This document shows, piece by piece, positions 16,748 through 19,909 of a DNA stretch of 64,000 nucleotides. The notes below the pieces were generated by a model, which was given only the letters and a program-made list of their open reading frames with translations, did not search any database and was not told where the DNA came from. Both the position numbers and the translations under genes were made by a program. The stretch comes from an uncultured Thermoprotei archaeon (GTDB lineage: Archaea; Thermoproteota; Thermoprotei; Thermofilales; B15-G2): assembly GCA_965367815.1 (NCBI GenBank), contig CBDUKN010000005.1:32001-96000 (forward strand), written 5' to 3'. Position 1 is the stretch's first letter. Each line of letters starts with the position of its first letter.

Positions 16748-19700
16748 ATGAGAAATAAAGCCGCTATTGTTATTATTGTCTGGCTAGTTCTACTACCAGT
16801 CTTCTCAAAATTTATAGCTCATCCCTCCTCATCTACTATTAAAATTACTTTCATAGATGAGGACTCAGAAAACCCTGTTGTTGGAGTTTTCTTGATGAAG
16901 AGCGGAAATAAATGGTTATATGTTAAGACAAATAATAGAGGTGAAATAATTGTTAACAAGAACAGTTTAATTTATGGCCCAAGAATATCTCCTAAACCAT
17001 ATTTTCCAATAAAGATAATAGCCTTAAAGAACACTACTATAAAACTAAAGAAAGCATACTTCATTGTAATGAAAAAATACTTAGCTCTATATAATCCATA
17101 TGAAAAAATAGAAAAAATTTCTCCTATTGGAGCTATCTCCTTTGAAGTAAATAATATGAGATTTGGCTATAAGAGCGACGCAAGATATCTTGGACTTAAC
17201 TCTTCAACAGTACTAGTTCCAGTAAGCGGGGAAATCATATTAATAAAAACGAATAACTTTATATTAAGTATAAATGCCACTCAAGCAAAATGGGGTGATT
17301 ATATTGAATTAGATTTAGGGAAAGTCAGCTGCAAATATAACAAGATATTCTTAGATAACTCTATAGCCAAGCTAAAAGAACAAATGAGTATACTAGAAAG
17401 AAAAGGTATTTACGTGGGGTTCTGTAAAACACTATTTGAACAGCTGATTGAACTTAAAAATAAAGCTGAAGAATTCTATAAACGCGGAAACTGGGAAGAA
17501 GCCCTTGTCGCCTATAAGAAAGCTTTTCTAATATATGGCGATATAGTAAACAGAATTAATGTTCTTAGTACTAGATCAACTTTAACTGTTCCTACTATAT
17601 CATTAGTTCTAGTTTTTCTTTCATACTTCTTGGCTTCATTTATAACTGACAAGAAGTTCAAGAAAATATTATTATATTCTTGCATATACTTTATATTACT
17701 GTTAATTATATTTGCAGTATATCCTATTTTACTTGAAGGAAATCCCTATCTTACGATATCTCCTTTATTCATATACCTATTCTCTCTGATAATCTTTATA
17801 TTATCTGAAAAGATACCTGACCATTATATCAGAGAAGGATTTTCTTTCGCCGCTGCTACTTCAGCTTCTCTATCAATAGTTTTAAGGGAGAATAGGAGAC
17901 GTAAATTGAGGTTAACCTTAACTTTGTTAACTATAGCTCTTGTAGCGTTTGCTGTACATACTTTAAACACTTTAACTATTATTCAGTGGTTCTATGAAAA
18001 GGAAGTAGCTTATGTATCTTCAGCATACAATGGAAGTATCTTAGTGACAAAACTTAAAGAAAGTGTATTTCCATATTATTCTCTTTCAATAGTATTTGTA
18101 AGAACTATTTCGAATATAGATTCTCCTCAAATAATTTGTATTAAACGTGAATCTTCGCCTTATTCTAAAGAGTTTAAAATAAGTTATGGCGAAAAAGAAG
18201 TATATGCACTAGGAGCTATAAGCTTTACATCCGAAGTAAAGTATTTTCTCCCTCTAAAAGAAGCCGTAATAGAGGGTAAAATTCCAAGTCAGGAAAGTGA
18301 AGTTCTCTTAAGTCAAACAATGGCGAGTGCCCTTGGAGCAAAGTGCGGAGATAAAGTATCTATTAATGGTATTGAGGCCACTGTTGTAGGAATATTTGAT
18401 GAAGATAAACTTAGTGAAATAAGAGACCTTGATGGAGGAAAGATATTGCCAGTAATGATAACTCGGGAAGAAGGGTCATGGAGACTTGAAGTAATTCCTG
18501 CCAAATACACTATTATCTGTTCCGAGTTACTAGGAGAACGCCTTAAACTGCCGCGCTACAAAATCTACGTAAAAGTTTTGGGAAATCCAGAAGACTACGC
18601 AAGAAAAGCCGCTATTTTAACCGGTTCGTTGGTTTTCATAAACATGGGAGGAAAAGTAAAGTACTATACTGTATCTACAGTTATTGTAGTTAAGGGAGAG
18701 TCTCTTATTATTCCGATAGTGATTGCTCTTCTAACAGTATTTGTTTCAATAATGGAGAATGTATATGAAAGAAAAAGAGAAATAAGTATACTAGCATCCT
18801 TAGGTCTAAATCCATCGAATATAGCTTATCTCTTTTCGCTCGAAGGAGCAGTCTTGGGTTTTGTGGGATCTGCTCTCGGAATGTTTGCAGGATTTATTGC
18901 ATTTAAAGCATTTAGTTTAGCGGAAGTACTTGTTCCAGTAGACTTTAAGTTATCTCCAGTAGAACTATTGTTTACAGTAGTTGCAGCAACGCTAGTATCG
19001 ATTACTGCGTCTCTTCCTCCGGCGCTAAAAGCGTCGGTCATGGTTACTCCTAGTCTTGAAAGACGTTGGAAACTAGAAGAACAGAAAGATTTCATTGAAA
19101 GAGGATTGACACAAACACTTCCAATAAGAATACCAGCAAATAGAGTAGAAGACTTTGTGAACTATGTAGTAAGCAAGTTCAGAGAACTGAGTACAGGTCT
19201 TTTGCAGAAAGTAGACTTAATTTCTGTGGAAAAAATAGGTGAAGAATACAGAATATTATTCAAGTACTACAAGGGAAGCGATATTAGCTATAAGTCGTGT
19301 TTTACTGAGAATACTTTAATATTATATAAGATCAGTGATAATGTCTACGGAGCTAAGGCTACATCAAAGCCTGTTACCCAGCACAGTAAGCTGGGACTCT
19401 ACTATGTTCATGAAACACTATCTTTTCTACGTAAAATAGCCTTGGAGTGGAGTTCGAGAGCCACACGAATACTCGTGGCTCTAGGAGAAAACCCTGCAGT
19501 ACTATACACTATAGTGAAAAAATATGACCCGTATGAAGTAATAGTTCTAACTACTCCTGAGCGCATAGAAACAGTATCAAATGCTAAGAAAATTCTTGTA
19601 AAAGAAAAAATTCGAGTACCTGCTATTAGAGTCTATTCATTATCTTCCCTAAGCGAGTTATTTAAACTAAAGGAAGACTTAAGAATTTTACTAAGTGAAG

Positions 19701-19909
19701 TGCAGTACATCGCAGTAGGCTACGACTCGGGTCTAGCTGGAGTAATTTTGACTATTCTTTCATCTAAAGCAGGGAAGAAAATACTGCTCATAGAAGACAA
19801 GAGGAGCAAAACTAAGAAAGAAGAGAGGTCTTTTGCTAAGCTAGAGGTAACAGAAGTTTCTCCCAGTGAGTTAAAGAGAATATTTGGCTACAGAGAGTCA
19901 TTAGAATAA
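16748..19909 (+). CDS. FtsX/MacB-like permease with large ectodomain and C-terminal CARF-like Rossmann domain
   Basis: Signal peptide; EGKIP...MASALGAKCGDKV...VVGIFD...DLDG; FtsX signature NVYERKREISILASLGL...EGAVLG...PALKAS; C-terminal RILVALGENP...PYEVIVLTT. Confidence 0.8.
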   Translation: MRNKAAIVIIVWLVLLPVFSKFIAHPSSSTIKITFIDEDSENPVVGVFLMKSGNKWLYVKTNNRGEIIVNKNSLIYGPRISPKPYFPIKIIALKNTTIKLKKAYFIVMKKYLALYNPYEKIEKISPIGAISFEVNNMRFGYKSDARYLGLNSSTVLVPVSGEIILIKTNNFILSINATQAKWGDYIELDLGKVSCKYNKIFLDNSIAKLKEQMSILERKGIYVGFCKTLFEQLIELKNKAEEFYKRGNWEEALVAYKKAFLIYGDIVNRINVLSTRSTLTVPTISLVLVFLSYFLASFITDKKFKKILLYSCIYFILLLIIFAVYPILLEGNPYLTISPLFIYLFSLIIFILSEKIPDHYIREGFSFAAATSASLSIVLRENRRRKLRLTLTLLTIALVAFAVHTLNTLTIIQWFYEKEVAYVSSAYNGSILVTKLKESVFPYYSLSIVFVRTISNIDSPQIICIKRESSPYSKEFKISYGEKEVYALGAISFTSEVKYFLPLKEAVIEGKIPSQESEVLLSQTMASALGAKCGDKVSINGIEATVVGIFDEDKLSEIRDLDGGKILPVMITREEGSWRLEVIPAKYTIICSELLGERLKLPRYKIYVKVLGNPEDYARKAAILTGSLVFINMGGKVKYYTVSTVIVVKGESLIIPIVIALLTVFVSIMENVYERKREISILASLGLNPSNIAYLFSLEGAVLGFVGSALGMFAGFIAFKAFSLAEVLVPVDFKLSPVELLFTVVAATLVSITASLPPALKASVMVTPSLERRWKLEEQKDFIERGLTQTLPIRIPANRVEDFVNYVVSKFRELSTGLLQKVDLISVEKIGEEYRILFKYYKGSDISYKSCFTENTLILYKISDNVYGAKATSKPVTQHSKLGLYYVHETLSFLRKIALEWSSRATRILVALGENPAVLYTIVKKYDPYEVIVLTTPERIETVSNAKKILVKEKIRVPAIRVYSLSSLSELFKLKEDLRILLSEVQYIAVGYDSGLAGVILTILSSKAGKKILLIEDKRSKTKKEERSFAKLEVTEVSPSELKRIFGYRESLE

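Follow-up and report, generated by a model that had tools for sequence, protein, structure and literature searches.

Probable CARF_m8 membership of an archaeal FtsX-type permease with a predicted cytoplasmic CARF domain

What could a CARF-like domain do at the end of an FtsX-type permease? The question is raised by a gene in the window, which is the whole stretch of 64,000 nucleotides analyzed here (part of contig CBDUKN010000005.1 of an uncultured Thermoprotei archaeon, assembly GCA_965367815.1). To our knowledge, nearly all that is known of CARF domains concerns the reception of signals made by Cas10 during antiviral defense, and MacB/FtsX modules are known as force transmitters driven by ATP. 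The gene encodes a protein of 1053 amino acids (aa), P0001, which joins the two. We put the probability at about 0.5 that this protein, as a member of the CARF_m8 family, senses a ligand independently of CRISPR and so modulates a MacB-like mechanotransmitter. The identity of the protein, a CARF fold on an FtsX-type permease of the CARF_m8 family, is held with high confidence.

The family was recognized through a profile search. The PADLOC profile PDLC01991 ('CARF_m8--CARF_LolE_TM'), built from the same architecture as that of the window protein, matched residues 204-1033 over profile positions 2-810 of 810 (E = 7.8e-279, 925.2 bits). The GH2-bearing sister profile PDLC01990 ('CARF_m8--CARF_Beta-galactosidase_LolE_TM') matched with an E-value of 1.2e-107. 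Because the PDLC01991 match runs from end to end, the fusion is a named family in a public profile library (PADLOC-DB v2). The initial annotation had called the fusion unrecognized, which was fair for a first reading, but the architecture was already named in that library. The name CARF_m8 reportedly goes back to the CARF domain classification that Makarova and colleagues published in 2020. In the literature, we found no paper joining CARF with FtsX or naming CARF_m8. Searches for CARF with permease, LolE, or MacB returned none evident on the fusion by title or abstract; the text of the 2020 classification was outside the search. The window protein is a further member of a catalogued, experimentally unstudied family. 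Its elements follow the order typical of this family: extra transmembrane (TM) helices come first, then the FtsX module, the KA1-like domain, and the CARF. The protein falls in the short subgroup, which has no GH2 ectodomain, and has no feature that sets it apart as a kind of its own. In its small clade (three clusters), the loop motifs are unlike those of the family majority.

The gene, an open reading frame (ORF), and the segments of its product are located as follows. The models cited are AlphaFold models, and pLDDT is the predicted local distance difference test score.

16748..19909, plus strand: the whole gene, a 1053-aa ORF for the CARF_m8-type membrane protein P0001 (ORF; PADLOC PDLC01991 match)
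16748..16810, plus strand: N-terminal hydrophobic helix, residues 1-21, a putative signal anchor or peptide (the full-length model has a helix at 2-21)
16835..17314, plus strand: beta-rich ectodomain of no family, residues 30-189 (strands; model pLDDT about 50-80)
17318..17812, plus strand: long helical stalk and three extra TM helices, residues 191-355 (model helices)
17846..17965, plus strand: amphipathic 'coupling' helix and TM1 of the FtsX module, residues 367-406 (model helices 367-384 and 386-406)
17969..18694, plus strand: extracytoplasmic MacB-like core domain, residues 408-649 (MacB_PCD, 23.6 bits; Foldseek)
18698..19063, plus strand: TM2-TM4 of the FtsX module, residues 651-772 (PF02687; model helices; Foldseek)
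19091..19456, plus strand: predicted cytoplasmic KA1-like alpha/beta domain, residues 782-903 (model; structural neighbors)
19466..19888, plus strand: CARF-fold Rossmann-like domain, residues 907-1047 (model; structural neighbors; PADLOC CARF_m8)

The boundary between the last two domains is approximate, the KA1-like domain reaching to about 903-906 and the CARF domain extending from about 904-907 to about 1041-1047. The initial annotation had placed the CARF-like region exactly: the codon for residue 907 begins at base 19466, and 19909 is the last base of the stop codon. The stretches it quoted from residues 907-1053 (RILVALGENPAVLYTIVKKYDPYEVIVLTTPERIE, IRVYSL, and LSEVQYIAVGYDSGLAGVILTILSSKAGKKILLI) are all present in the translation. 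The full-length model was built with 22 relatives and had a mean pLDDT of 78.9. It contained stalk and membrane helices at residues 191-218, 224-245, 249-299, 303-324, and 333-355, and the TM2-4 helices at 651-673, 689-725, and 737-772. From this helix order, the tail is predicted to lie on the cytoplasmic side. Pfam gave a weak TPR match at residues 236-260 and no match for the ectodomain (30-189) of the window protein; in the relatives, the outer N-terminal region carries CarboxypepD_reg or GH2 domains. At the 5' end, a close relative (P0003) begins 15 residues further upstream (MKHIYYSALKSLAEIM...). A peptide similar to this start is encoded at 16702-16750 of the window, in another reading frame and just 5' of the ATG at 16748. 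The frame difference therefore points to an indel between the two genes or to a miscalled start of P0003.

The tail (residues 770-1053) was modeled from an alignment with 41 related proteins that appeared sound over the tail columns. The model had a mean pLDDT of 89.6 and consisted of two domains. The second domain has strands at 907-911, 930-935, 959-964, 987-991, 1011-1016, and 1033-1037 with helices between them. These build a six-stranded Rossmann-like alpha/beta fold in which the last two strands form a hairpin, as expected of a CARF domain. A Foldseek-independent structural scan (VIA) was run against 48,161 PDB representatives, and the best 50 rows were inspected. The second domain was matched in 17 of these rows, 16 of which were CARF proteins. 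Sso2081 ring nuclease scored Z = 11.6 (134 residues aligned, root mean square deviation (rmsd) 2.7), and Can2 reached the same Z in two entries and 9.3 in a third. The further Z values were 11.2 for VC1899, 11.1 for Csa3, 10.7 for Card1, 10.4 and 10.0 for Cad1, 9.8 for Csm6', 9.6 each for TtCsm6, Cdn1, and Cam1, 9.4 for Can1, 9.3 for Cami1, 9.0 each for SiRe_0806 and EiCsm6, and 8.4 for Csx1-Crn2. The sole non-CARF row for this domain among the matches listed was the amino-acid ligase RizA (Z = 8.2).

Re-alignment of the top 1000 chains of Foldseek placed Sis0455 (7z55) first, with Z = 12.3 over 140 aligned residues (rmsd 3.7), together with Csa3 (Z = 12.1) and Sso2081 (Z = 12.0). Foldseek itself returned Cam1, Sso2081, and Cad1 at a probability of 1.00. 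USP and TrkA-N were not among the best 50 rows of either structural comparison, which is an absence from these lists only. The initial annotation had proposed a comparison with CARF structures as a check on its reading; the top Z was 12.3, for a CARF protein, and the outcome was neither a non-CARF best match nor an unfolded region. The closest folds are thus the Crn1 ring nucleases (Sis0455 and Sso2081) and Csa3 of Sulfolobales, with 128-140 residues aligned. Unlike the window protein, they are small and soluble, Csa3 carrying a DNA-binding domain, and their identity to the tail is just 8-17% in the structural alignments.

Links to curated CARF sequence profiles were uneven in strength. The CARF part alone weakly matched the PADLOC models CARF2 (E = 1.8e-4) and CARF1 (E = 3.5e-4). 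The relative P0038 reached 22.6 bits with Pfam CARF_Card1 (cut-off 24.6) and matched the PADLOC models CARF1, CARF3, CARF4, and Csx1, and the relative P0013 touched HFX_2341_N in Pfam. The atlas feature matches were all to CARF-type families, with every score below 0.9, so that they serve as leads only. Against the PDB sequences, the tail as a single query gave no match at E <= 10, and a tail profile of nine sequences gave none that was significant; the best natural protein there was Sis0455 (7z55, E = 0.12). Searched alone against 1.84 billion representatives, the tail matched 45 clusters at E <= 1e-3, of which 15 had E <= 1e-10 and 2 had E <= 1e-30. The matching region was always C-terminal in the full-length matches, which were proteins of about 1050 to 2090 residues. 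The region is a genuine, folded, and conserved domain, unlike a pattern that arises by chance. On the models, the CARF fold assignment is solid, and the claim of the initial annotation that a CARF-like Rossmann domain is fused to the cytoplasmic end of an FtsX permease was borne out by the tail model, the structural scan, and PADLOC CARF_m8.

The domain that precedes the CARF has a beta-alpha-beta4-alpha topology in the model. Its structural neighbors include the KA1 domain of Kcc4p (Z = 10.5, 105 aligned, rmsd 2.8) and the C-terminal domain of AMPK alpha (Z = 9.7), and similar Z values were obtained for the METTL16 VCR, BamC, and Bet v 1-like proteins. 'KA1-like' therefore denotes a similarity of the predicted fold, and membership in KA1 is not claimed.

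The membrane part was identified by both sequence and structure. FtsX (PF02687) matched residues 655-763 with 51.7 bits (cut-off 25.5), MacB_PCD matched residues 391-554 with 23.6 bits, under its cut-off of 27, and NCBIfam gave weak LolC/E, MacB, and FtsX matches only (residues 647-764). In Foldseek, the top matches of the full model were LolCDE, MacB, Spr0694/5, HrtBA, YtrEF, YbbAP, and BceAB, with E-values down to 4e-11, which makes the membrane part a permease of the type VII ABC style. The outer core domain matched the periplasmic domains of MacB and LolE (3ftj, 5udf, and 5c59). R385, R388, and L391 were near-invariant across the 22 relatives and form a basic motif around the amphipathic helix 367-384 and TM1. 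As in MacB, LolCDE, FtsEX, HrtBA, YtrEF, and BceAB, an FtsX domain is present, TM1 and TM2 flank an outer core domain, and the coupling helix is basic and conserved. Unlike these systems, the window protein adds three TM helices and an N-terminal ectodomain, and it continues into the KA1-like and CARF tail where they stop after TM4. It also has neither an ATPase domain nor an ATPase gene on its contig.

The 149-kb contig (C5) carries none of the 53 ABC_tran matches of the genome; a partner may be encoded elsewhere. The genome (2.4 Mb) has 18 FtsX-like matches, i.e., the window gene and 17 others, and about 14 of them lie in ORFs some 600 to 1500 aa long. A MacB-type ATPase gene adjoins each of the three small classical FtsX genes, which are on contigs C20, C6, and C2. 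The large FtsX-like ORFs have no ABC ATPase match within about 5 kb, the nearest being about 6 kb away (contig C7).

How widely the tail is kept was assessed in 401 sampled genomes of the phylum. The nine-sequence tail profile matched in 86 of them, and the match covered the CARF domain in at least 38, from many families and including the genome studied here. Many more paralogues matched profile positions 2-152 only, which correspond to the KA1-like domain. PF02687 was found in 34 of 42 aligned members, MacB_PCD in 26, and an N-terminal GH2 domain in ten; others carried CarboxypepD_reg. Six aligned large paralogues and the neighboring 1318-aa protein end 3 to 24 residues past the KA1-like position. 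The 1318-aa paralogue had been said in the initial annotation to lack the tail, and indeed none of the five tail-profile matches in the genome falls there; the protein ends 8 residues past the KA1-like position. A tree of the core (residues 360-903, 36 sequences, FastTree, midpoint root) contained a 19-member clade of CARF bearers only, which includes the window protein (support 0.965). The remaining CARF bearers were interleaved with CARF-less proteins, and the tail was probably lost or gained more than once.

How, then, could the parts work together? CARF domains are dimers that hold the ligand on the two-fold axis, and MacB-type permeases are dimers that relay cytoplasmic conformational changes via long helices to their outer domains. 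The C-terminal CARFs would be brought together under the membrane; hence our reading of the protein as a mechanotransmitter modulated by a ligand. The protein would form a homodimer, as MacB-type permeases do, and two CARF domains, one per protomer, would pair beneath the membrane and bind a small cytoplasmic ligand. Via the long helices of the membrane part and the stalk, the bound ligand would then determine which conformation the outer domains adopt. This would be a ligand-modulated version of FtsEX/MacB/LolCDE mechanotransmission, with or without an ABC ATPase encoded elsewhere, and its output would be whatever the ectodomain does. We infer the dimerization, the ligand binding, and the direction and output of the signaling, and the odds of this mechanism taken by itself seem to us a little short of even. 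In this organism, the ligand is unlikely to be a cyclic oligoadenylate made by Cas10. The initial annotation had suggested that a nucleotide second messenger gates the protein, which may still hold. RtcR is an example of a CARF used as a sensor outside the type III CRISPR context, and, unlike the window protein, it is a soluble transcription activator.

Several points weigh against our reading of the protein. All the structural evidence comes from AlphaFold models, and Atg7, E1 enzymes, and spermine synthase appeared at similar Foldseek E-values, via long and poor alignments. The window protein matches no Pfam CARF family, and the sole Pfam match in the tail is a sub-threshold one to OLD-like TOPRIM. 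A comparison of the tail profile with the genome's own Csa3 using hhalign gave a probability of 0.48%, which is not significant. No known cyclic-nucleotide synthase was found in the genome to supply a dedicated signal. On the core tree, CARF-less proteins stand amid CARF-bearing paralogues, and the tail is therefore dispensable for the permease as such. Finally, a Ser/Thr after strand 1 and a [DN]x[ST]xxx[RK]-like motif after strand 4 are typical of ligand-binding CARFs. In the window protein, the loop after strand 1 (LGENP) has no Ser/Thr, Asn915 standing where 23 of the 42 relatives have Ser, and a basic residue is missing from GYDSGLAGV, the loop that follows strand 4. The protein also deviates from the family majority at eight CARF positions among the better-conserved ones (P911A, S915N, G954K, D986Q, C989A, S992Y, D994S, and E1022T). 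The degeneracy of the second motif had been pointed out in the initial annotation, and it agrees with the GYDSG found here as against SDDG in many relatives and the classical TGG in some.

These departures are set against signs of constraint. The loops after strands 1, 4, and 5 (G913-P916, Y992-G998, and D1017-S1020) were invariant in all three sequences of the protein's own clade, whose overall identity is 53-84%. Relative to P0004 (53% identity overall), the CARF domain was 50% identical, the outer core 41%, the KA1-like domain 68%, and TM2-4 70%. The within-clade invariance together with the departures from the family majority therefore indicates a domain that is maintained and a putative pocket that is atypical.

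The initial annotation had linked the fusion to type III CRISPR signaling and had proposed asking whether orthologues carry the tail and whether their genomes encode Cas10. The genome studied here (99.4% complete, 37 contigs) gave no Cas10 with the models TIGR02577, TIGR02578, and PF22335 (Cmr2, Csm1, and Cas10 palm), with positive control searches. Its Cas1 is part of a type I-B-like locus with Cas3b, Cas5b, Cas7b, and Cas4, which is the sole CRISPR locus type. The same locus holds Csa3 (PF22662, 86.9 bits; contig C8, about 11387-12034, minus strand; L033), and thus a canonical CARF regulator is present in a genome without detectable Cas10. A second, weak CARF-like ORF of 166 aa was seen on contig C17. 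Diadenylate cyclase (DAC) was not found in the genome, and SMODS matches were below threshold only. Among the 38 genomes with the CARF tail, Cas10 exceeded the curated cut-off in four (G085, G262, G334, and G400), five more had weak palm-region matches (G039, G095, G122, G159, and G249), and 29 had no Cas10 match. The Cmr2 model was above its cut-off in 61 of the 401 genomes of the whole sample. The proportion of 4/38 against 61/401 thus shows no enrichment of Cas10 with the CARF tail; the comparison is descriptive, the genomes being related. No cas gene was present among 74 neighboring ORFs scanned from ten distant related loci. The link to type III signaling was accordingly not upheld, the absence of Cas10 by three models, the type I-B locus, and the lack of cas neighbors all speaking against it.

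On this evidence, we consider it very unlikely that the protein is a type III CRISPR membrane effector, in which the CARF would bind a Cas10-made cyclic oligoadenylate and the membrane part would damage or gate the membrane. The idea draws on the fold, which is near those of cA4-binding proteins, and on PADLOC, which places the family among candidate defense profiles. It also has a precedent in Cam1, described as a TM-CARF effector activated by cA4; the N-terminal TM domain of Cam1 is simple and helical, and the cA4 it works with is made by Cas10 (PMC11229360). Cam1 and other TM-CARF effectors likewise have the CARF at the cytoplasmic side of a membrane protein and are similar in fold (Z = 9.6-10.2). 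In the window protein, by contrast, an eight-helix MacB-type module that bears large outer domains precedes the CARF, and no Cas10 was detected in the genome. Moreover, the neighbors in 11 loci were housekeeping or envelope genes, and a survey of 1113 type III loci mentions neither 'FtsX' nor 'ABC transporter' in its main text. A membrane-tethered ring nuclease, i.e., a Crn1-type enzyme that degrades cyclic oligoadenylates, is harder still to credit. Its attraction is that the nearest structures are the crenarchaeal Sis0455 (Z = 12.3) and Sso2081 (Z = 11.6-12.0), and that Sis0455 was also the best natural protein in the profile search, at the non-significant E-value given above. Csa3 and Can2, however, score within 1 Z unit of the ring nucleases, so the fold does not single these out, and no source of the substrate was found in the genome. 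The least probable account is that of a non-CARF Rossmann-like module (TOPRIM, USP, or TrkA-N) that merely resembles a CARF. It could appeal to the OLD-like TOPRIM Pfam match (E = 0.0019-0.0068, 16.7-18.5 bits, cut-off 27), to the E1/Atg7 Rossmann folds, and to the family motif DSDDG, which is reminiscent of the TOPRIM DxD. The tail, however, lacks a conserved acidic residue following strand 1, and no DxD-like motif is present in the window protein (a single Asp, D993, in the later loop) or in many relatives. The CARF rows also lie 3 to 4 Z units over the only other Rossmann-type row listed, and independent profiles link the domain to CARF models. Membership in OLD-like TOPRIM was considered separately and rejected (18.5 bits against 27; no Glu after strand 1 and no DxD).

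The main rival is a degenerate CARF, which would keep the fold but be blind to ligand and act as a dimerization or docking platform under the membrane, e.g., by stabilizing an ATPase-less FtsX scaffold for the outer domains. We regard it as rather unlikely, though clearly less so than the three accounts above. Both loop motifs are atypical, the eight conserved positions are off the majority, and no source of a dedicated second messenger was found. CARF-less sister paralogues exist, and the large paralogues all lack an ATPase gene within about 5 kb. What a ligand-blind platform leaves unexplained is the invariance of the loops in the protein's own clade, the conservation of the domain to the same degree as the rest of the protein, and the retention of the tail in at least 38 of 401 genomes from many families. 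A bolder variant of the ligand-modulated mechanotransmitter appears improbable to us. In it, the CARF would take over or share the job of the missing ABC ATPase, and an ordinary metabolite would drive or gate the piston-like MacB-type movement, thereby switching the outer domains. If this were true, the domains so switched would be binding domains here and dead or live glycosidases in relatives. CARF_m8 would then represent a housekeeping, CRISPR-independent use of CARF in a mechanotransmitter operated by a ligand and not by ATP.

The surroundings of the gene were compared with those of related loci. Upstream, a module at 8313-16037 (plus strand) comprises a 1318-aa M28-like/MacB_PCD giant, a 613-aa OPT-like permease, and a 654-aa DUF6785/DUF6784 protein. 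The M28-like/FtsX giant occupies 8313-12269, and the same three-gene order occurs in L022, a locus from a Thermoprotei metagenome-assembled genome (MAG). The small genes on either side of the CARF-FtsX gene are the following.

16143..16460, plus strand: 105-aa ORF, upstream, 68% identical to an ORF at the same position in L022; no Pfam match
16475..16624, minus strand: 49-aa SpoVT/AbrB (MazE-type) DNA-binding protein, divergent from the gene (PF04014, 38.3 bits, cut-off 24.7)
19946..20266, plus strand: 106-aa lineage-restricted ORF, 36 bases downstream, 76% identical in L022; no Pfam match

L022 is the single close relative in the named genomes; it was reached with the alignment query, which led to this one locus, and the tail alone as a query of the contigs gave no close relative. 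Its CARF-FtsX protein is 52% identical to that of the window, and the whole gene order is kept. At 8242-8244 of L022, an in-frame stop (RRWK*KETKEF) falls exactly at the border between TM4 and the tail, with a Met six codons later. The gene may be split or be a pseudogene, or the stop may stem from an error in sequencing; in P0004, which comes from another MAG, the residue at this position is Leu. The 106-aa ORF lies directly downstream of the CARF-FtsX gene in both the window and L022, and it is 76% identical although the CARF-FtsX proteins are just about 52% identical. Only two clusters of this protein occur among 5.8 billion proteins, its own and that of one Thermoprotei MAG, and the locus tag of the MAG record is next to that of the CARF-FtsX protein P0004. 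The 106-aa protein is a candidate partner of the CARF-FtsX protein; the atlas gave no usable match for it. The 105-aa and 106-aa ORFs were not found in the ten distant loci or in the short loci L002-L021. For the SpoVT/AbrB protein, no homologue was found in the other loci examined; it may act as a regulator of the locus or represent a solitary antitoxin-like gene.

In the ten distant loci, the 74 scanned ORFs were those nearest the gene, out of 141 of at least 130 aa. They included no MacB-type ATPase, and the sole ABC_tran match belonged to a Znu-type transporter set in L026. In four of five GH2-type loci, a homologous protein of 775-802 aa with no Pfam match is encoded divergently beside the GH2-FtsX-CARF gene (L027, 13069-15411; L029, 13619-15949; L031, 3768-6095; and L032, 13487-15895). 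These proteins share 33-44% mutual identity, and in two of the loci a UbiA prenyltransferase follows. In L023 and L024, which come from one family of genomes, the CARF-FtsX gene stands by a PMT-like membrane glycosyltransferase, DUF6785/DUF6784, and an OPT-like permease, along with a PqqD-like protein and a 200-aa FtsX-only protein. Elsewhere in the window, a solitary Cas4-like PD-(D/E)XK nuclease (27019-27675, minus strand; PF12705 and PF01930) adjoins an SfsA gene. It is far from the CRISPR locus, which sits on another contig. For window positions 18500-20400, no RNA dataset was listed, and the DNA datasets were hydrothermal vent and sediment metagenomes.

The present case adds one more member to a catalogued, uncharacterized family, together with a clear negative on the CRISPR link. 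CARF_m8 joins a CARF and a MacB/FtsX module in genomes that mostly have no detected Cas10 and no neighboring ATPase gene. If the domain binds a ligand, this ligand would reveal what a CARF senses outside immunity, and the protein would show that a small molecule acting from the cytoplasm can control a type VII ABC-like module.

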